From Terriglobia bacterium (GTDB lineage Bacteria; Acidobacteriota; Terriglobia; Bryobacterales; Bryobacteraceae), in NCBI GenBank assembly GCA_963783505.1, contig CAWAOP010000025.1:76-64075 (forward strand): a stretch of 64,000 nt of DNA. The letters run 5' to 3'. Shown in pieces: positions 57,986-64,000 of the stretch. The translations under genes and the position numbers were made by a program. How positions within the stretch are numbered: position 1 is the stretch's first letter; each line of letters opens with the position of its first letter. Below the pieces are notes generated by a model. That model was not told where the DNA came from and did no database searches. It saw only the letters and a program-made list of their open reading frames with translations.

Positions 57986-58417
57986 ACGACAAAACTCCTT
58001 TAGCCCAACCGTCGAACTTCGCGATCAATAATACCGCTTTCGAGCCCGTTTTACTAGTCCAGGATGCTTAACTCCCGTATAGTCGCTAGCCTTGATCGGA
58101 AATGCCTCGGCGCACAAGATTGGGGCGAAGCCACGGAGCCCGAGCCGAGGCATTTTCGATAAGGAGACAAGAAGGAAGCCGCTGGCGTTTGCGGCGGACG
58201 CGGCAGCTATGGCGATTGGTGGCTGGTTTGGTACCCGCTCGCGACGCCGGATTGTTGGCGGGCTGCTGGAGCGGTCGGGTGGGGGCGCGGTTTCGGGTGA
58301 GGTGGTGATGGCGAAGGCCCTAAAGATGGCGCTTCTGCGTGGATATCACGGCAGCCGAACAGACTGGCGCGCCGGCGTGCAAGTGGCACGTCCATCGTCC
58401 GGCTATTGTCCGCCCCA

Positions 58418-59593
58418 TCAGGAAGAATCAAAGAAAGCCCTCCGGATGGACAACTCCGCGGCGCTGAATCGCTGGACCACAGTCATGGGAGCGCCGCACG
58501 TTGGACATTGCCAGGATGTGGGCCCCCGTGTTGGCGTCGTTCCGACCGCAGAGGTGCTTGGAGCGCAGCCCAGAACCTCACGACAAATCGCAAGGCGAGC
58601 GGTTCGCCAACGGTTGGCGAGAAAACCGAAGTGGCGGATACGCACGAACCCTTTCGGCAGGACATGCAAGAAGAAGCGGCGAAGGAACTCGACGGCAGTC
58701 AGGTTCATAACGCGATGCTTGCCGCCGTGGGCGTAATCCTTGTATCGAAAGGCGACGTGCTCTCCATCGAAGGCCACAATCCTGTGATTGGAGATGGCGA
58801 CCCGATGGGTGTAGCGGCCAAGATATCGCAGCACCTGCGTGGGACCGCCGAAGGCGGGCTTGGCATAGACGACCCAATCTTGCCGGTGCACGTTTCGCAA
58901 TAGCTTGGCGAACTGTTTAGGCTCCGCCAGCGAAGCGGCGGGGCCGGAGCAGTTCAGTTTCCGACGTCGGTACAGGCGTTTGAGGCCGGCGACGAACTTG
59001 CCGCGGAAAACACGGCTCAGCGCCTTCACCGGCAGGAAGAATGGATAGCGGGGATGAACCCAGGCCTTGTGATCGGCAGAAAGACCGCCTGCAGGAATCA
59101 CGCAATGGACATGCGGGTGTAACAGCAGATTCTGTCCCCACGTGTGCAGGATGCCGATCATGCCGATCTCGGCGCCGAGATGCTTCCGATCCGCGGCGAG
59201 TTCCAATGCCGCCGCGGCGCTGGCGCGGAACAACAGCTCATAGAATTCTCGCGGGTTGTTCAGCGCCAGCACGTTCAGTTCGTGGGGCACGGTGAAGACC
59301 ACGTGAAAATAGCTGGTCGAAAGCAGCTCTTGCTCTCGTTTGGCGATCCAACATTCCCGTGCCTGTGTTTGGCACTTGGGGCAGTGCCGGTTCCGGCAGG
59401 AGTTATAGGAGATGGCCTGATGCCCGCATTGTGGACACGAATCGAGGTGTCCGCCCAAAGCCGCGGTGCGGCAGTTCTGGATGGCGCGGAAGGCCTTGAG
59501 TTGCTGATAATCAAAACTCGATTCGTATTGGTCCAGAAAGCGGCTGCCCTGTGCGCGGAGGATGTCGGCCACCTCCACGGCAGGCCGGCTCAT
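58418..59593 (-). CDS. IS91-family (Y2 rolling-circle) transposase
   Basis: N-terminal zinc motif CPQCGH...CRNRHCPKC. HVVFTVPHEL, ILHTWGQNLLLHPHVHCVIPAGG and YLGRYTHRVAISNHRI blocks. Confidence 0.9.
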   Translation of the reverse strand: MSRPAVEVADILRAQGSRFLDQYESSFDYQQLKAFRAIQNCRTAALGGHLDSCPQCGHQAISYNSCRNRHCPKCQTQARECWIAKREQELLSTSYFHVVFTVPHELNVLALNNPREFYELLFRASAAAALELAADRKHLGAEIGMIGILHTWGQNLLLHPHVHCVIPAGGLSADHKAWVHPRYPFFLPVKALSRVFRGKFVAGLKRLYRRRKLNCSGPAASLAEPKQFAKLLRNVHRQDWVVYAKPAFGGPTQVLRYLGRYTHRVAISNHRIVAFDGEHVAFRYKDYAHGGKHRVMNLTAVEFLRRFFLHVLPKGFVRIRHFGFLANRWRTARLAICREVLGCAPSTSAVGTTPTRGPTSWQCPTCGAPMTVVQRFSAAELSIRRAFFDSS

Positions 59594-60510
59594 CCCTGCT
59601 CTTTAGATTTCGTCCCCGGATGGCTGGCCTGCACATCGGAAAGTTGGAGTTTCGCCAACGGATTGGCAGCGGCGTTCAGGTGTTCCTGCGAGAGATGGAT
59701 ATAGCGCGCCGTGGTCTCCAGGTCTCCATGTCCAAGCAGCATCTGGATGGTACGCAGGTCGGTGCCCGCTTCGAGCAAATGCGTCGCCCAACTGTGTCGC
59801 AAGGTATGCGGAGTGACGTGCTTAGTGATGCCGGCTTTCTTGGCGGCATCGGAGCATACGTGCCAGACCGTTTTATCGGAAAGCGGGACATCCGGTCCTT
59901 TGCGCTCGCCGCGGCTGGGGAACAAGTATACCTTTGGCTTGCGCCAGCGCCAGTACGCGCGGAGCGTTTCCAGCAGTTCCGGGTTCAGCGGCAGGTCGCG
60001 ATCCTTGCTTCCTTTGCCTTGGACGACGCGGATGATCATGCGCTCGCTGTCGATGTCGCGCACCTTGAGGTGGACCACTTCGGAGCGGCGCATGCCAGTG
60101 CCATATGTGGTCATCAGTAGCGCTCGCCGGAAAAGGTTGCCGCTGGCATTGATGAGGCGCGCCACCTCATCCAAACTCAGGATCGTCGGTAGCCGCTCCG
60201 GCTCTTTGGGATACGGGATGAAATCCCGAAACTCCGGCCGCTTGAGTGTGCGGACGAAGAAGAATCGTAGCGCCGCGACGTGGTTGACGACGCTTCCTAC
60301 CGCCAGTTTGCGCTCGTTTAGCAGGTACGCCTGATACGTGCGCAGTTCCGTCAGCCCCAGTTTATCCGGCGGCTTGCCGTAATACCTGGCGAACTCCTCC
60401 ACTGCCCGGAGGTGATGCCGAATTGTATCCTTGGAGTAATTACGACGCTGGAGTTCCTCCAGCATCATTTTGCGTAGTTGGGTCACGGGGACCTCCTTGT
60501 GCCCCAACAC
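59590..60510 (-). CDS. tyrosine recombinase (phage-integrase family) associated with the IS91 transposase
   Basis: SAM-like N-domain. TGMRRSEV..., HTLRHSWATHLLEAGTDLRTIQMLLGH...TTARYIH (R-H-R-Y catalytic set). Confidence 0.9.
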   Translation of the reverse strand: MLGHKEVPVTQLRKMMLEELQRRNYSKDTIRHHLRAVEEFARYYGKPPDKLGLTELRTYQAYLLNERKLAVGSVVNHVAALRFFFVRTLKRPEFRDFIPYPKEPERLPTILSLDEVARLINASGNLFRRALLMTTYGTGMRRSEVVHLKVRDIDSERMIIRVVQGKGSKDRDLPLNPELLETLRAYWRWRKPKVYLFPSRGERKGPDVPLSDKTVWHVCSDAAKKAGITKHVTPHTLRHSWATHLLEAGTDLRTIQMLLGHGDLETTARYIHLSQEHLNAAANPLAKLQLSDVQASHPGTKSKEQG

Positions 60511-60706
60511 TACTCTCTGACGAAGCCGACCGCCTCCCCTTTACGCGACGCGTAGCGTCCGCCGCGCCAGCGGCTTAGTTCTCGTCGGCGATACGGAATT
60601 AACCTACATTGACGGTTTGTCCCCGACCCGTTCTTGAGAATCGCCTCTTCTTTAGGGCTTTAGGCCTGGCGTGGCGGCTCACCGTGTCCGCTGGTAGAAT
60701 TGACTT

Positions 60707-60922
60707 ATGTCCACCCTGTTGGAGAAGGCGCTGGAAAAGGTCGTCGCTCTGCCCCTGGATGAGCAGGACGCGATCGCTTCCCAAATCCTCGCTTCGATAG
60801 CCGACGAGGACGCCTGGAAGGCGCGCTTCGCGGGGAAACGCGATGTGATCCGTCGAATGGCACGGGAAGCCCTCGAAGAAGACGAGCGGGGAGAGACGAT
60901 GCCCTTGGACGATCTGCTTTGA
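60707..60922 (+). CDS. type II antitoxin (addiction-module component)
   Basis: 71 aa. LEKALEKVVALPLDEQDAIASQILASI is typical of this antitoxin class. Its stop overlaps the ATG of the toxin (TGATG). Confidence 0.6.
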   Translation: MSTLLEKALEKVVALPLDEQDAIASQILASIADEDAWKARFAGKRDVIRRMAREALEEDERGETMPLDDLL

Positions 60923-61184
60923 TGCATTCCCGGACCACACGGCAGTTCTGGCGATTGTTTACAGAGTCTCCCCTTGGCGCTCAGCGGGACGCCCAGCGCG
61001 CCTATCGTCATTTTCCGGAGCAACCCGGCGCACCCCGGCCTGCATTTCAAGAAACTGGAAGGCGAGGATAGACATCTACTCGGTTCGCATCGGGCTTGAA
61101 TATCGCGCTCTGGCCGTTATGAAGAAGGATCGAATCGTGTGGTACTGGATCGGCAGTCACACCGAATACGACCGTCTGGTCTGA
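60922..61184 (+). pseudogene. RelE/ParE-superfamily toxin, two +1 frameshifts
   Basis: MHSRTTRQFWRLF...AYRHF in frame A. SNPAHPGLHFKKLEGED in frame B. IYSVRIGLEYRALAVMKKDRIVWYWIGSHTEYDRLV in frame C. Confidence 0.6.
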
Positions 61185-61205
61185 GCTTCTGCCACGTGGC
61201 CGTAC

Positions 61206-62012
61206 CTACCCCGCTTGCCATCCCCTCCACCTCCCCACCCGCACATTCTCTCCGCGCGGCGCCCACACCGCTGGATCGGTCGGACCGAACAGCGCCAGCA
61301 CCGGCGCGCCGGCAGCGGCGGCGAGATGGGTGATTCCGCTATCGTTGCCGATGTAGACGGCCGCGCCCGCGAGCCAGTTCGCCAGTTCGTACAGATTGTC
61401 GATGCGAACCACTTGAGCGCCGTGGGATTCGCGCGCGAGCAGTTCTTCGAGCGGGGGATCTTCCGGCCCCGCGCACCATCGAACGGGCATGGCGCGCTCA
61501 AGCTCGCGCGCTACGCCCTGAAACTTCTCGAGCGGCCAGTTCTTCTTCGCGCTGCCCGAGAACGGGTGGATGATGGCGCAACCGTGGCGCGGCCCATCGC
61601 AGCGAATGCGCGGAACGCCGTCGCTCGTGCAGGGCGCGACCGTTCGCGCCTGGTCCAGGTAGAAATCCGTGGCGTGGACCTCCGAGGCTGCCGCGGGAAG
61701 GGCGGGGAAGAACGTAAACGGGAGTCTCCAATTGCGAACGCAAGCGCGGAAATCTTCCCGGCCCGCGCCGTACCACGAAATAATCGAGTCGAACGTTCGT
61801 AGCTCCTCGATAAGCGCGCCTGGCGGTTCAACCAAGCCGAGAAGATTCAGTCCGGTGGAAGCAATCGAGCGCGCGCGATCGGCAATCTGCGCCAACGGTA
61901 CGTTCGGAGAGGCCGTCCAAACCTCGAAATAGTCTGTTTTCAGGCACTCCAAGGCGGGCAGGGAGACAACAAAATCGCCGATTCCGCCGGGACGGATGGC
62001 CAATCTGCGCAT
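61206..62012 (-). CDS. family 9 glycosyltransferase (heptosyltransferase-like)
   Basis: Start MRRLAIRPGGIGDFVVSLPALE. C-terminal YIGNDSGITHLAAAAGAPVLALFGPTDP. Confidence 0.8.
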   Translation of the reverse strand: MRRLAIRPGGIGDFVVSLPALECLKTDYFEVWTASPNVPLAQIADRARSIASTGLNLLGLVEPPGALIEELRTFDSIISWYGAGREDFRACVRNWRLPFTFFPALPAAASEVHATDFYLDQARTVAPCTSDGVPRIRCDGPRHGCAIIHPFSGSAKKNWPLEKFQGVARELERAMPVRWCAGPEDPPLEELLARESHGAQVVRIDNLYELANWLAGAAVYIGNDSGITHLAAAAGAPVLALFGPTDPAVWAPRGENVRVGRWRGWQAG

Positions 62013-62256
62013 TCCTGACCCAGTATCCCAGAACAGGAAGCCTGCGCGTTGTTTTATCCACAGCGGATGAACCGTAATCAAGCTGTAACGCTTTGAAAAC
62101 TCAGCGTTCAAAAACTTGTGGAAAACGCGCCGCGGCCCGCGAAATGTCCTTGACCAAAAAGCGAATCGGGAGCATTCTGGATGAGGTTCCAAGAGGTTTG
62201 AGGAACAGCCAGCCTCCGAAACGTAGCGGGCCTGGAACGATGATCTGGGACGGCGA

Positions 62257-62815
62257 CTAGAAATAGAAGTAGTCCTGGGGAGCGAAGGGAAATCGGGCGA
62301 ATCGGAAGGCGAGCCGCAAGGTTGGGCTTAACGCGGAACGCTTTGATCCGTCAGGGATGTAAGAGTCCCGAAGGGGAGTGGGAGCGGGTAGCACAGCCGG
62401 GCGCGCGAGTTGCGGAGAGCGCAACGGGCGACAGGCAAAGAAGCGGCCCTGGCCGGGGCAAACCGGCTGGAGCGGTGGAGCCTGAAGCGGACCGGGCGAA
62501 GGAAGCGGCGAGCGGAGAGGCGAAGGAGCAGGCCAGGACCGTATGACCCCGTGGCGGGACCCGCGCAAGCGGGGGTCGTTGCGGGCGAGGGAAAGGCCGT
62601 TACGAGCCGAAGGCTGACGGCAAGAGGCAGACTGCGGCGGGCTTCGAGGCATTGAAGCGGCTTTCGGGAAACCCGGAGGCTGTGGAGCTGAGAGGCGGAA
62701 CGCTCGGGACTCTTGCTGGCGGCGTTCAGAGCCGTGCATGACGGCGGTGAACGAGGCTGGGAATCAGGTCACTTGGAACCATTTCTTTTTGGGGGACCGT
62801 GCTTAGCGGTCCCCC
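62257..62815 (+). ncRNA. candidate large structured RNA (unclassified)
   Basis: About 550 nt without a credible ORF. Purine-rich and T-poor on the + strand. Many local hairpins, several with GNRA-type loops. Ends in a 9-bp GC hairpin. No match to any RNA family I can recognise. Confidence 0.3.
62791..62815 (+). terminator. GC-rich hairpin GGGGGACCG-N7-CGGTCCCCC (weak T tail)
   Basis: Perfect 9-bp stem followed by TTCCCATTTCC and preceded by TTTCTTTTT. Confidence 0.35.
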
Positions 62816-62837
62816 TTCCCATTTCCGGGGTGGCCAG

Positions 62838-62907
62838 CCTCCGCTTCCTCACGGTCGCGGCTCGGCTAGTGGCTGAATCCCGCTCGCCGAGCCGCGACCG
62901 TGAGGGA
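62838..62907. repeat. REP-like hairpin, same family as 38565-38652
   Basis: CCTCACGGTCGCGGCTCGG ... CCGAGCCGCGACCGTGAGG arms around a ~20-nt loop. Lies just downstream of the aminotransferase gene. Confidence 0.75.
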
Positions 62908-63009
62908 GCGTTGCAAGCTGCGGGGGAGATAATCCGCACTCCGCATGCCGCGCCATGAGATAGGCGTAGGCCGGACGCCGCAGAGGACGACGACTAAAGA
63001 CGTTCGGCG

Positions 63010-63891
63010 CTACCTTGCCTCGACGTAGCTCGCCGTGTAAGCAGAGAAGGCGGCCTGCAGGGCCGAGCGGGCCCGGTCATCCCTTCCGGTCGGTTTGCCT
63101 TCGATCTCCAGCACCGGCAGCAGGTCTCGGGTGGTCGAGGTGATGAACACTTCGTCCGCCGATTCAAGATCCGCCGGCATCAGCGTCTTCTCGCCAATCT
63201 CGAAGCCCTCGGCGTGAATCTCGCTCAGCAAGACCTCACGGGTGATCCCGGGAAGGCAGCCCGAACTTAGTGGCGGCGTCCACACTCGATTGCCATCCGC
63301 CACGAAAATGTTGGCCGAGGTGCACTCGGATACTTCCCCGCGCTCATTGAGCAGAATGGCCTCGTCGAATCCACGAGCCTGGACGGATTCCACCCACGTG
63401 AGATTCATAGCCCAGGAAAGGATCTTGGTCCCGGCGAACGGACAAGCCGCATGGCGGGCGTTGGCGACGTACGCCAGTTTCACGCCGGCGCCCCAGTCCT
63501 TGGAATCGGCGGTGAGGGCGATCACGTCGAAGGGCCTGCCTCCCGGAGGTCCGGACCACATGCCGCCGGAATTGCGAACCACCACCACCCGCATCGTGGA
63601 ATGGCGCGCCCCGTTCACCCGGGCCAGTTCCTTCAACTTGGCAAGCAGCGCGTCGGGGTCGTCCGGAATGGGTACGTGCAGAGCGGTAGCGTCGCGGCGC
63701 ATACGCGCCCAGTGCCGCTCAAACGCGAACGGTATGCCCTCTACGATTTTCAGCGTGCTGAAGACGCCCCACCCGGCGAGCAGCCCGGTCTGAGCCGGAG
63801 AAAGAGTCAGAGCCGTAGCTTCCTGGATGACGTCATTGTGCAGAACAAAACGGTGGACCACGAAGCTGATTTTAGCAGCCGTCAGCGCCAT
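63010..63891 (-). CDS. class IV aminotransferase (aminodeoxychorismate lyase / D-amino-acid or branched-chain type)
   Basis: 293 aa. GVFSTLKIVEG...FERHWARM, ECTSANIFV, LPGITR. Confidence 0.85.
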   Translation of the reverse strand: MALTAAKISFVVHRFVLHNDVIQEATALTLSPAQTGLLAGWGVFSTLKIVEGIPFAFERHWARMRRDATALHVPIPDDPDALLAKLKELARVNGARHSTMRVVVVRNSGGMWSGPPGGRPFDVIALTADSKDWGAGVKLAYVANARHAACPFAGTKILSWAMNLTWVESVQARGFDEAILLNERGEVSECTSANIFVADGNRVWTPPLSSGCLPGITREVLLSEIHAEGFEIGEKTLMPADLESADEVFITSTTRDLLPVLEIEGKPTGRDDRARSALQAAFSAYTASYVEAR

Positions 63892-64000
63892 CAGCCATCA
63901 GCTTTCAGCAACCAGCCAATGCGCCTTTGCTGAAAGCTGGATCGCTACTTCCAATTCGCGAACGGGTTCGTTCTCGCCCCTCGGCACGCCGCCAGCAGAT

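Follow-up and report, generated by a model that had tools for sequence, protein, structure and literature searches.

Genomic context and distribution

The window analysed here is a 64,000-nucleotide stretch of a contig from a member of the Bryobacteraceae (Acidobacteriota, Terriglobia). Near its 3' end a GT9 gene (PF01075), whose real start is most likely the ATG at 62012, is separated from a class IV aminotransferase gene (PF01063, 63010–63891) by a gap that, as originally predicted, holds no credible protein-coding gene. The gap contains a stand-alone gene for a structured non-coding RNA of approximately 600 nucleotides, which occupies 62185–62780 on the + strand and is followed by a U-run to 62790. 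An IS91-type transposase gene and a recombinase gene lie 1.7 kb from the RNA. The features of the locus are as follows.

62150–62178, + strand: predicted sigma-70-type promoter, with a −35 element TTGACC (62150–62155) and a −10-like element CATTCT (62173–62178)
62185–62780, + strand: conserved RNA body, 596 nucleotides in the window copy, from GGUUCCAAG to CUUGGAACC
62781–62790, + strand: U-run, the presumed termination tract and 3' tail, consisting of an A and then UUUCUUUUU
62791–62815, + strand: GC hairpin past the U-run, outside the conserved RNA, in the window and the genome's second copy

A second copy of the RNA is located elsewhere in the same genome. It has 96% mean column identity to the window over 767 aligned columns, unrelated flanks included, with identity beginning at the −35 element and stopping after the terminal hairpin. 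Carrier genomes can hold two or three copies, often at contig ends; among closed genomes with the RNA, one has two copies and two others have a single copy each. BLAST found 31 copies of 525–609 nucleotides, and 207 distinct full-length copies were collected from genomes and metagenomes, the later harvests being anchored on the two P1 motifs (see below). At least 120 RNA-like stretches are present in species genomes and at least 120 in metagenomes.

The conservation in relatives on which the original prediction depended was found: BLAST detected the RNA in 26 of 41 relatives and in all nine genomes of the genus. Using a model of the 5' domain, we identified representatives within the order Bryobacterales in 48 of 71 genomes of the main family (f1), 6 of 7 of family f3 and 2 of 72 of family f2, and in none of 131 genomes from other families of the class or 150 from the rest of the phylum. 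Sampled pairs of copies are 48–95% identical across the order. The RNA is common to many soil and peat Acidobacteria. The 23 main-family genomes without it, closed genomes among them, indicate that some lineages can do without the RNA; in one RNA-less genome the flanking genes are kept around a spacer of 437 nucleotides.

The + strand of the RNA is poor in T and dominated by G and A, as had been observed from the window alone (22.7% A, 23.3% C, 41.8% G and 12.2% T, compared with family means of 23%, 24%, 38% and 15%). Because T is scarce on this strand, stop-free runs on the opposite strand are long, with a median of 152 codons. The 160-residue ORF at 62257–62739 on the − strand exists but had been dismissed as not credible, and rightly so. 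It is broken by one-base indels in the genome's own second copy, and the indels between the two copies disrupt every frame. The 122 homologues compared show no codon periodicity, with a positional entropy of 1.04, 1.02 and 1.02 in the three codon phases, and 714 of their 735 indel runs (97%) are not multiples of three. The conserved frame, codon periodicity and indels in threes of a protein-coding gene or pseudogene are all absent, and these comparisons revealed no protein remnant.

Secondary structure

From MAFFT alignments of the copies we infer that the 5' and 3' ends pair as a closing helix (P1), which encloses four domains.

62185–62201, + strand: 5' strand of P1, pairing with 62764–62780
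62764–62780, + strand: 3' strand of P1; the outer nine base pairs join 62185–62193 with 62772–62780
62212–62310, + strand: domain 1, stacked helices with an apical hairpin whose tip here is CUA-GAAA-UAG
62236–62246 / 62277–62284, + strand: K-turn-like module in domain 1
62311–62616, + strand: domain 2, closed by 62311–62315 / 62612–62616
62316–62402, 62404–62514 and 62516–62611, + strand: arms 2a, 2b and 2c of domain 2
62339–62380, + strand: K-turn-pattern motif 1, with bulged strand 62339–62349 (CGC-UUU-GA-UCC)
62373–62380, + strand: opposite strand of motif 1 (GGG-GA-GUG)
62620–62716, + strand: domain 3, with a long apical hairpin 62657–62665 / 62675–62683
62648–62689, + strand: K-turn-pattern motif 2, with bulged strand 62648–62658 and opposite strand 62682–62689
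62724–62752, + strand: domain 4 hairpin, with stems 62724–62728 / 62748–62752 and 62731–62734 / 62742–62745
62735–62741, + strand: seven-nucleotide loop of domain 4, with the palindromic hexamer position at 62736–62741 (GCAUGA here)

Across the 207 copies, double (compensatory) changes are found at 131 of the 197 predicted pairs. The model has 89.7% of cells paired, a value that none of 500 shuffled alignments reaches and that falls to 34–45% in slid controls. Its covariation score is 0.45, compared with 0.20 in shuffles (0 of 500) and 0.07–0.11 when slid. A model from RNAalifold shows double changes at 98 of 147 pairs, and 53 of the 90 top pairs by APC-corrected mutual information, including all of the top 12, lie within the structure. 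The folding z-score is −6.24 for 62185–62792; for the span first proposed it is −3.69 on the + strand versus −1.86 on the − strand, and the many G-U pairs likewise assign the RNA to the + strand.

Compensatory changes in excess of controls are what is expected of a structured non-coding RNA. They bear directly on the two alternatives that accompanied the original prediction, that the region is a decayed protein-coding gene or that its hairpins arose by chance from the composition of GC-rich DNA. A 160-codon ORF and a GC-rich genome are what these alternatives would lead one to expect; however, the frames broken between the two copies, the lack of codon periodicity, the prevalence of indels that are not multiples of three, covariation far above shuffled and slid controls and conservation across an order contradict them, and we regard both as effectively eliminated.

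The proposed start at 62257 proved to be 72 nucleotides too far in, so that the 5' strand of P1 and the best-conserved block were missed. Six local hairpins had been listed. The window sequence contains all six, yet not all of them are part of the conserved fold. Those at 62449–62470 and 62560–62573 agree with it and are 66% and 77% paired in the homologues. In contrast, the hairpins at 62409–62425, 62596–62621 and 62641–62658 are paired in only 36%, 39–40% and 47% of cells, respectively; their strands sit instead in covarying long-range helices that are 79–100% paired. The sixth, at 62791–62815, was taken as part of the RNA but lies beyond it, past the U-run.

P1 consists of 16 pairs that are 98% paired, nine of them invariant and three covarying at the inner end, an invariance inflated by the use of the P1 motifs as harvest anchors. 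The helix is also recovered by single-sequence minimum free energy folding. Helices 3–6 of domain 1 are 90–98% paired and include double changes at 15 pairs. The helix closing domain 2 is 99% paired with three pair types at each position, and the helix 62404–62411 / 62507–62514 within it is 81% paired with three to six pair types. In domain 3, helices 23–26 are 87–90% paired and contain 30 pairs with double changes. Additional helices and pseudoknots (at least three consecutive pairs, at least 85% paired) were sought, and yielded only short, ambiguous G/U-rich candidates that we do not trust. Several covarying column pairs are non-canonical and are not explained by the fold; they may reflect clade signal or tertiary contacts.

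A K-turn consists of a Watson-Crick helix, a three-nucleotide bulge, tandem G-A and A-G pairs and a second helix (PMC9723947, section 4). This sequence pattern occurs at two sites in 193–205 of the 207 copies. In motif 1, 204 copies have the three-nucleotide bulge, 205 place G across from A and 202 place A across from G; the C-helix flanking this motif covaries and is 94–100% paired. In motif 2 the corresponding counts are 204, 193 and 201, and two C-helix pairs are 99–100% paired. A further GGGGAG module, the first in the RNA (62236–62246 / 62277–62284), does not, judged from the predicted pairs, fit the three-nucleotide bulge and is K-turn-like at most. No L7Ae/YbxF-family protein (PF01248) was found in the organism's own genome, which is 92.9% complete; K-turns that fold without a protein of this type exist. 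The two internal loops would fold as K-turns and thereby fix the angles at which the arms meet. The apical segments of domain 2 carry a GNRA word in 171–183 of 207 copies and that of domain 1 in 119, and such GNRA-type loops might dock elsewhere in the RNA.

Predicted promoter, U-run and transcripts

We aligned 132 upstream regions on the RNA start. The first T of the −35 element is present in all 132, and TTGAC is conserved in 116–132 of 132 at each position. The −10 profile has C, A and T at positions −12 to −10 in 114, 129 and 121 regions and T at −7 in all 132. The spacer is 17 nucleotides long and not conserved in sequence, and an A/T-rich patch lies just upstream of the −35 element. In this genome's two copies the hexamers are identical and the spacer differs. 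A consensus scan called neither a promoter nor a terminator at the locus, the former because the −10 element in the window matches at only three of six positions. The placement of these elements predicts a transcription start on the first G in the closing helix.

Of 130 copies, 104 have A and 25 have T at the first position after the RNA, and 116 have seven to nine T residues among the first ten. Neither the terminator scan nor a fold of the span revealed a local hairpin before the U-run, which leaves P1 as the sole stem adjoining it. P1 and the U-run would together form an intrinsic terminator, and release of the transcript would then be coupled to closure of the fold. We know of no precedent for a terminator whose stem closes a 580-nucleotide loop. 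The hairpin at 62791–62815 is lineage-specific and may serve as a back-up terminator. One genome of the same genus has a similar G/C-rich stretch past the U-run in each of its two copies; the sequence downstream of the RNA is otherwise unconserved across homologues.

The original prediction held that the region is transcribed, and look-alikes of the RNA are present in peat RNA libraries over exactly the RNA's span. In four peat studies, 324, 5275, 622 and 444 RNA-library contigs match at a likeness of at least 85%, all in bins within 62146–62801. None falls in 61900–62145 or 62802–63100; most derive from relatives, whose unlike flanks could not align, so the lack of contigs there does not mean that the flanks are untranscribed. 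Such contigs also carry no information on transcript ends, strand or expression level. In the sequencing runs the share of sampled words was 0.16–0.24, which likewise indicates that the runs contain relatives and not this strain.

Syntenic settings

Copies of the RNA occupy the same two syntenic settings across genera. In 16 loci a Ycf48/BNR-like gene lies upstream on the same strand, and the RNA starts approximately 157 nucleotides past its stop codon. In nine loci, including the window, the upstream neighbor is instead the divergent GT9 gene. The class IV aminotransferase gene is convergent with the RNA in 14 loci (the window and 13 others). The existence of two different settings indicates that the RNA is not bound to a single downstream gene, and in this genome's two copies the flanks are swapped with the RNA unchanged. 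Linkage to the BNR-like gene was considered and rejected: among genomes without the RNA, two retain that gene and three, all of one genus, lack it. No conserved partner gene was seen next to the RNA in the loci compared for synteny.

The constant position after the BNR-like gene in 16 loci is what a cis-acting element would predict, most obviously a long 3' UTR of that gene. However, the RNA has its own conserved −35 and −10 elements, ends in a U-run, follows a divergent gene in nine loci and is unaltered where its flanks are exchanged. A leader or riboswitch would precede a gene under its control in the same orientation, but the downstream gene is usually convergent. We consider cis-acting roles improbable.

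Several observations would suit a selfish or mobile element (for example a MITE, a group II intron that lacks its ORF, or a guide RNA associated with a transposon or phage): the two or three copies per genome, their frequent position at contig ends and the transposase and recombinase genes near the window copy. In contrast, the recurrence of the same two settings across genera speaks for a stable location, no terminal inverted repeats or target duplications were found, and neither a transposase nor a nuclease gene is a conserved neighbor among the loci compared. An exact-pattern scan of viral contigs gave no matches. The group II model RF01998 (group-II-D1D4-1) matches this genome only on contigs C17 and C56, away from the locus, and a group II intron would not be expected to carry the predicted promoter and U-run seen here. 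A mobile origin is, in our judgment, highly improbable.

Relation to known RNAs

Rfam 15 (4227 models) gave no match at E ≤ 1 in 58000–64000 of the window. A search of 18 homologous loci at E ≤ 5 returned seven matches, none within the RNA. GOLLD is among the families represented in Rfam. We found no description of the family in the open-access abstracts and main texts covered, and the available parts of 10.1101/2024.10.03.616574, PMC5737381 and PMC8632094 mention neither Acidobacteria nor this RNA. An independent structured transcript of unknown class, as first proposed, is thus supported by the Rfam searches, conservation, covariation and RNA-library contigs together. The RNA is a new member of the kind formed by the large ornate bacterial RNAs and lies outside any known family.

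RNase P RNA (RF00010), 6S RNA (RF00013) and tmRNA are housekeeping RNAs that stand alone, are abundant and have a closing helix between their 5' and 3' ends, and the new RNA would resemble them in these respects. The sole RNase P RNA match in the genome is on another contig (C19:169096–169486, 301 bits), a weak 6S-like match also lies elsewhere, and ARAGORN detected no tmRNA or tRNA genes in 61900–63100. Unlike these universal RNAs, the new RNA is not found in about one in three main-family genomes.

The closest resemblance is to OLE (ornate, large, extremophilic) RNA (RF01071), whose model has 616 positions compared with approximately 600 nucleotides here. Both fold into several domains and have internal loops that are strongly conserved, and the K-turn described for OLE in PMC9723947 has a counterpart in the K-turn pattern of this RNA. 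The host phyla differ, since OLE is reported there from Gram-positive extremophiles and anaerobes and this RNA is from Acidobacteriota. The OLE model has no match at the locus or in the genome, a result qualified by the lack of matches in control genomes as well. According to PMC12286853, ROOL (RF03087) and GOLLD are large ornate RNAs that assemble through kissing loops and A-minor contacts and occur in phages and prophages, often near tRNAs. This RNA, in contrast, is found in stable chromosomal synteny, and the ROOL model gave no match.

Palindromic loop of domain 4

The loop of domain 4 is the RNA's only covarying palindrome. Among the 207 copies the loop hexamer is a perfect palindrome of one of six kinds in 181 and a wobble palindrome in 13; the remaining 13 have one end mismatch, and none has a central mismatch. 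The window's own GCAUGA belongs to the imperfect group, with a self-complementary core of only four base pairs. In the set A2, self-pairing of the hexamer reaches 96.7%, compared with 83.8% in shuffles (0 of 500) and 2–53% when slid. The central adjacent pair is AU in 23 cases, UA in five and GC in two. About 21 label changes are placed on the tree, many among near variants, and independent changes are few because a single palindrome is common to 161 copies.

This loop remains self-complementary while changing, as do symmetric kissing loops of the OLE L9.3 and GOLLD L21a type. L9.3 is described as a symmetric loop with a covarying palindrome, and the same self-pairing reasoning was applied to L9.3 and L21a along with cryo-EM structures (PMC12286853, section 8). 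Adjacent loop bases covary in L21a according to the same source, as they do here. A comparable situation is found outside bacteria. In retroviral DIS kissing loops, a six-nucleotide self-complementary hairpin-loop word varies between lineages and stays palindromic. This RNA differs in being bacterial and chromosomal, in having a seven-nucleotide loop and in lacking a genome-packaging context.

Judging by the loop sequences, two molecules of the RNA probably pair with each other through domain 4. The palindromic loop would contact its counterpart in the partner molecule, and the RNA would then be active as a homodimer or as a larger homo-oligomer. Such an assembly may act as an abundant scaffold, made of RNA alone or of RNA and protein, comparable to OLE, ROOL and GOLLD.

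Alternatively, the RNA may be a real structured RNA that acts as a monomer, possibly as a ribozyme or a protein-sequestering regulator, in which the palindrome is a symmetric site for a dimeric protein or is merely tolerated. The structure, promoter and abundance fit such a monomer equally well, 161 of 207 copies share one hexamer, and large bacterial RNAs are often catalytic (PMC5737381, section 8). However, this one loop is found with any of six perfect palindromes, and its two adjacent central bases covary as AU, UA or GC/CG without a single mismatch among the 207 copies; drift of this kind would not occur at a site that a protein reads in a sequence-specific manner. Known ribozyme models in Rfam 15 have no match. 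A CsrB-like sponge was rejected, as the apical loops are GNRA-type or palindromic and not the GGA-type loops of a sponge. We hold a monomeric RNA to be a serious but less probable reading.

Our preferred explanation, in which we have moderate confidence, is a non-coding RNA gene of approximately 600 nucleotides, present in two copies, with a P1-closed fold, a terminator formed by P1, K-turns and homo-oligomerization mediated by the domain 4 loop. A bolder and tentative proposal is that this is a new ornate RNA class which, in peat, would rank with the most abundant Bryobacterales transcripts other than ribosomal RNA. Its molecules would form a protein-free symmetric homo-oligomer by way of the palindromic loop, and synthesis would be self-checked, since the helix that closes the completed fold would double as the terminator stem.

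Implications

To our knowledge, few bacterial non-coding RNAs longer than approximately 400 nucleotides have elaborate conserved folds, and the large ornate examples known to us are ribozymes, parts of the core machinery or, in the latest cases, complexes that assemble themselves from RNA alone. The RNA described here is prominent in peat RNA libraries and belongs to a phylum that is dominant in soil yet little studied. Annotation pipelines now leave its span blank or call a spurious ORF, and the RNA family would be a useful addition to them. With over 200 naturally occurring variants and good support for its secondary structure, the RNA is a ready target for cryo-EM, chemical probing and, in cultured Bryobacterales, genetics. 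Two mechanistic leads can be tested: self-pairing between loops, and a terminator whose stem is the closing helix. One genome (G038) has two diverged copies with the palindromes GCGCGC and GCAUGC; if self-pairing through this loop is correct, such copies would form separate, non-mixing assemblies.

Identification of a non-coding RNA gene

The RNA at 62185-62780 (plus strand), followed by a U-run to 62790, appears to be an undescribed, order-restricted, ornate RNA of about 600 nt, and we consider it nearly certain that the locus is a real RNA gene. The original prediction of a structured transcript of its own is borne out by pairing constraint, by sequence conservation and by the lack of an Rfam match. 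The surrounding features are as follows.

start most likely ATG at 62012, minus strand: GT9 glycosyltransferase gene (PF01075)
63010-63891, minus strand: class IV aminotransferase gene (PF01063)
62842-62910: inverted repeat between the RNA and the convergent aminotransferase gene, with arms of 31 nt that are 90% complementary and 7 nt apart

No credible coding frame was found between the two genes, as had been claimed, and the ORF listing confirmed that the sole long ORF, 62257-62739 (minus strand), is of low complexity. The plus strand is indeed rich in purines and poorest in T (G 41.8%, A 22.7%, C 23.3% and T 12.2% over the RNA), with a GC skew of 0.26-0.31 across 62200-62799, and its paucity of T accounts for the few stop codons on the minus strand. 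The GT9 ORF as listed (61206-62192) has a TTG start at 62192, inside the predicted promoter and 5' end of the RNA. The protein supported by homology starts at 62012 (MRRLAIRPGG...), and the extension to 62192 is probably spurious, a product of the scarcity of stop codons here. A small antitoxin-like ORF lies at 60707-60922, followed by a RelE/ParE-like reading (60707-61184 region) that continues only across frame changes.

The possibility of a gene remnant is ruled out. Variability along the RNA lacks three-base periodicity in the alignment of homologues, 714 of the 735 indel runs have a length not divisible by three, and paired positions change in compensatory fashion. The two copies in the window's own genome likewise differ by several single-base indels, which change every reading frame.

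Phylogenetic distribution

BLAST searches of 41 related genomes found the RNA in 26, including all nine of the same genus, usually in one or two copies per genome and often at contig ends. Full-length copies within the family are 68-78% identical to the window; in more distant genomes BLAST reaches significance for one 5' block and one 3' block only. All 31 full-length copies, which are 525-609 nt long, start with GGUUCCAAGAGG and end with CUUGGAACC, and later harvests of copies were anchored on the RNA's two end motifs.

Scanning one genome for each prokaryotic species with an exact pattern yielded at least 120 stretches, and the same pattern occurs in at least 120 metagenome contigs and in none of the viral contigs scanned. 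The 80 matches listed come from Bryobacteraceae, Solibacteraceae, Bryobacterales, Terriglobia or Acidobacteria MAGs, save two with other labels: CAYWJB010000004.1, titled 'uncultured Arcobacter sp.', and DATJYW010000307.1, titled 'Candidatus Acidiferrales bacterium'. These two could reflect mislabelled bins or a genuine presence of the RNA beyond the order.

For a taxonomic survey we used a covariance model built on the first 142 nt of the RNA. Within the order, it identified the RNA in the window's family (48 of 71 genomes), a second family (6 of 7) and a third (2 of 72); it identified none among 131 genomes from other families of the class or among 150 from the rest of the phylum. Because genomes are samples and the filters strict, these absences mean 'not found in those searched'. 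About one third of the genomes of the main family, some of them closed, are without the RNA; one such genome (G015) keeps both flanking genes around a 437-nt spacer unlike the RNA.

Genomic context and duplicate copies

At 16 loci the RNA begins about 157 nt after the end of a Ycf48/BNR-like gene (PF14870), and 13 of these loci have a GAF-domain gene ahead of the BNR-like gene. The RNA is convergent with a class IV aminotransferase gene in 14 loci and divergent from a GT9 gene in nine.

A whole-genome search located a second copy in the window's own genome (G000:C23:103084-103763, minus strand), which has a BNR-like gene on its upstream side and a UxuA-like gene on its downstream side. The two are alike from the -35 hexamer near 62150 to just past a GC hairpin, at 62829, and beyond these limits their flanks are unrelated. 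The window copy has the GT9 side of one syntenic setting and the aminotransferase side of the other, and recombination between the two copies has probably exchanged their flanks. Copies that share a genome are 55-100% identical: some pairs have been kept alike (100%, 98.5% and 95%), and other copies are closer to the same-setting copy in a sister genome. This mixed pattern points to an early duplication after which gene conversion has occurred occasionally. The inverted repeat at 62842-62910 belongs to a dispersed family of REP-like palindromic repeats and lies outside the RNA unit; it was hit by 77 of the 79 own-genome search matches, on many contigs and both strands.

Covariation and secondary structure

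In MAFFT alignments of relatives, compensatory changes lie far above shuffled and slid controls. RNAalifold predicted 147 pairs from 31 copies, 98 of them with compensatory double changes. A second consensus structure of 197 pairs shows standard pairing in 89.7% of cells, versus 75.2% after column shuffling and 34-45% with partners slid by 1-3 columns. Double changes occur in 131 of its pairs, versus 64-82 with slid partners, and none of 500 shuffles equals the observed values, a test that is inflated by the relatedness of the copies. In an alignment of 122 copies (mean identity 0.60), predicted helices account for all of the top 12 APC-corrected mutual-information pairs and for 53 of the top 90. 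With its true ends, the window RNA folds 6.2 standard deviations better than shuffles. Many G-U pairs are invariant, and we therefore assign the RNA to the plus strand.

Strong covariation links several column pairs that are not part of the nested structure, such as 62311/62338 and 62476/62634. Among them are some non-canonical pairs (GA/AG swaps) and one pair that is canonical in 90% of copies; either tertiary contacts or clade signal may account for them.

The consensus structure consists of a closing helix (P1) and a second helix inward (P2) that together enclose four domains, all on the plus strand.

62185-62201 with 62764-62780: P1
62206-62209 with 62756-62759: P2
62212-62310: domain 1
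62311-62616: domain 2, with arms 62316-62402, 62404-62514 and 62516-62611
62620-62716: domain 3
62724-62752: domain 4

The closing helix of domain 2 has five base pairs, is 99% paired and shows three pair types per position. A GNRA word occurs in the apical segments of its three arms in 171-183 of 207 copies, and in those of domains 1, 3 and 4 in 119, 139 and none, respectively. Two of the hairpins originally proposed (62449-62470 and 62560-62573) coincide with the conserved fold. Those at 62409-62425, 62596-62621 and 62641-62658 pair in only 36-47% of cells among the 207 copies, and their strands belong instead to long-range helices.

Candidate K-turns

The sequence GGGGAG is among the most conserved words of the RNA and occurs three times. 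Two of these sites, both on the plus strand, carry a K-turn pattern: a Watson-Crick helix, a three-base bulge, G-A and A-G oppositions, and a second helix.

62339-62349 with 62373-62380: K-turn-pattern motif 1
62648-62658 with 62682-62689: K-turn-pattern motif 2

At each site, 204 of the 207 copies have a bulge exactly three bases long; G is opposite A in 205 (motif 1) and 193 (motif 2), and A opposite G in 202 and 201. Both motifs fit the definition quoted in section 4 of the paper that reports a K-turn in OLE RNA (PMC9723947). The third GGGGAG site lacks the three-nucleotide bulge and can be called K-turn-like at most. No L7Ae/YbxF-family protein was found in the window's own genome; if the motifs are K-turns, they would fold via tertiary contacts or another protein.

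Predicted promoter and 3' end

In 132 upstream regions aligned on the first G of the RNA, TTGAC occupies -35 to -31 in 116-132 regions, followed by an unconserved 17-nt spacer, then C-A-T (-12 to -10) and, at -7, a T that never varies. The corresponding elements of the window, as predicted from this profile, are as follows.

62150-62155, plus strand: -35 hexamer
62173-62178, plus strand: -10 hexamer

Their spacing places the expected start at or beside G62185, where the closing helix begins. Because the window's -10 hexamer matches the textbook hexamer at only three positions and a simple consensus scan does not call it, the promoter at 62150-62178 is predicted from conservation.

CUUGGAACC is followed by A or U, and T, otherwise the rarest base of the RNA, fills 7-9 of the first ten bases past this point in 116 of 130 copies. 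A terminator scan and folding revealed no local hairpin just before the U-run, and P1, formed with the extreme 5' end, is the sole stem abutting it. For these reasons we tentatively propose that P1 and the U-run would together act as a terminator, a role for P1 to which we give slightly less than even weight. The GC hairpin predicted at 62791-62815 is present and shared with the second copy; it follows the U-run and is unconserved across homologues. One same-genus genome has a similar G/C-rich stretch after its U-run.

Occurrence in RNA libraries

An index search returned 20 RNA runs from 17 studies, comprising peat and bioreactor metatranscriptomes, that hold 16-24% of the sampled words; these words are from conserved parts of relatives' RNA rather than that of the window strain. 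Contigs from four peat runs (four studies) were placed on 61900-63100 at 85% likeness, giving 324, 5275, 622 and 444 placements with summed word depths of 10^5-10^6. All fall in bins between 62146 and 62801, and none in the 246 bases before or 299 after, where relatives' flanks would be too dissimilar for placement. This shows that the libraries hold close relatives of the RNA in many variants, with cover that ends where the conserved RNA ends and carries no information on RNA ends, strand or level.

Comparison with known RNAs

A cmscan with Rfam 15 matched no family to the window or to 18 homologous loci. OLE and ROOL models gave no match in the window's own genome, and neither did their controls. 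ARAGORN found nothing at the locus, and the genome's RNase P RNA and a weak 6S-like match both lie away from it. Group II intron models matched other contigs only; domain 1-4 matches (RF01998) lie at G000:C17:131587-131663 and G000:C56:116621-116697, each at 45.5 bits. Acido-Lenti-1 (RF01687) is weakly matched in one same-genus genome (L015:2148-2193, minus strand), 19 nt beyond the RNA's 3' end and on the strand opposite to it; its 29.9 bits fall short of the gathering score of 37. Searches of the main text of openly accessible articles, discovery papers included, found no description of the RNA. The RNA is closest in manner to OLE, ROOL and GOLLD and is a member of none.

A palindromic loop and possible self-pairing

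The seven-nucleotide loop of domain 4 contains a hexamer (62736-62741, plus strand) that is the RNA's sole covarying palindrome.

Loop hexamers in 207 distinct copies
GCAUGC: 161 copies, perfect palindrome
GCUAGC: 8 copies, perfect palindrome
GCGCGC or CGCGCG: 5 copies, perfect palindrome
UCAUGA: 3 copies, perfect palindrome
GUAUAC: 2 copies, perfect palindrome
UCUAGA: 2 copies, perfect palindrome
GUAUGC: 12 copies, palindrome with G-U
GCAUGU: 1 copy, palindrome with G-U
GCAUGA: 10 copies, both own-genome copies among them, outer-pair mismatch
GCUAGA: 3 copies, outer-pair mismatch

Thus 181 copies carry perfect palindromes of six kinds, 13 include G-U, and in 13 the sole mismatch is in the outer pair; none of the 207 has a central mismatch. 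In the 31-copy alignment the three 'self-pairs' of the hexamer are standard in 96.7% of cells, compared with 83.8% in shuffles (none of 500 as high) and 2-53% with slid partners, and the adjacent central bases are AU in 23, UA in five and GC in two. Adjacent bases are unable to pair inside one chain, and the palindrome is out of register with the axis of its own hairpin. The same argument is made, together with cryo-EM structures, for OLE L9.3 and GOLLD L21a (PMC12286853, section 8). On these grounds we infer a symmetric kissing contact, which the domain 4 loops of two molecules would form. Against such self-pairing, one palindrome dominates (161 of 207 copies), a FastTree tree shows few independent changes (about 21 changes of label), and the loop of the window's own genome retains only a four-base-pair core. 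On balance we moderately favour self-pairing through the palindromic loop.

One related genome (G038) has two copies of the RNA that are 55% identical and differ in their palindromes, one with GCGCGC and the other with GCAUGC. Provided that self-pairing does run through the loop, these two RNAs would not mix.
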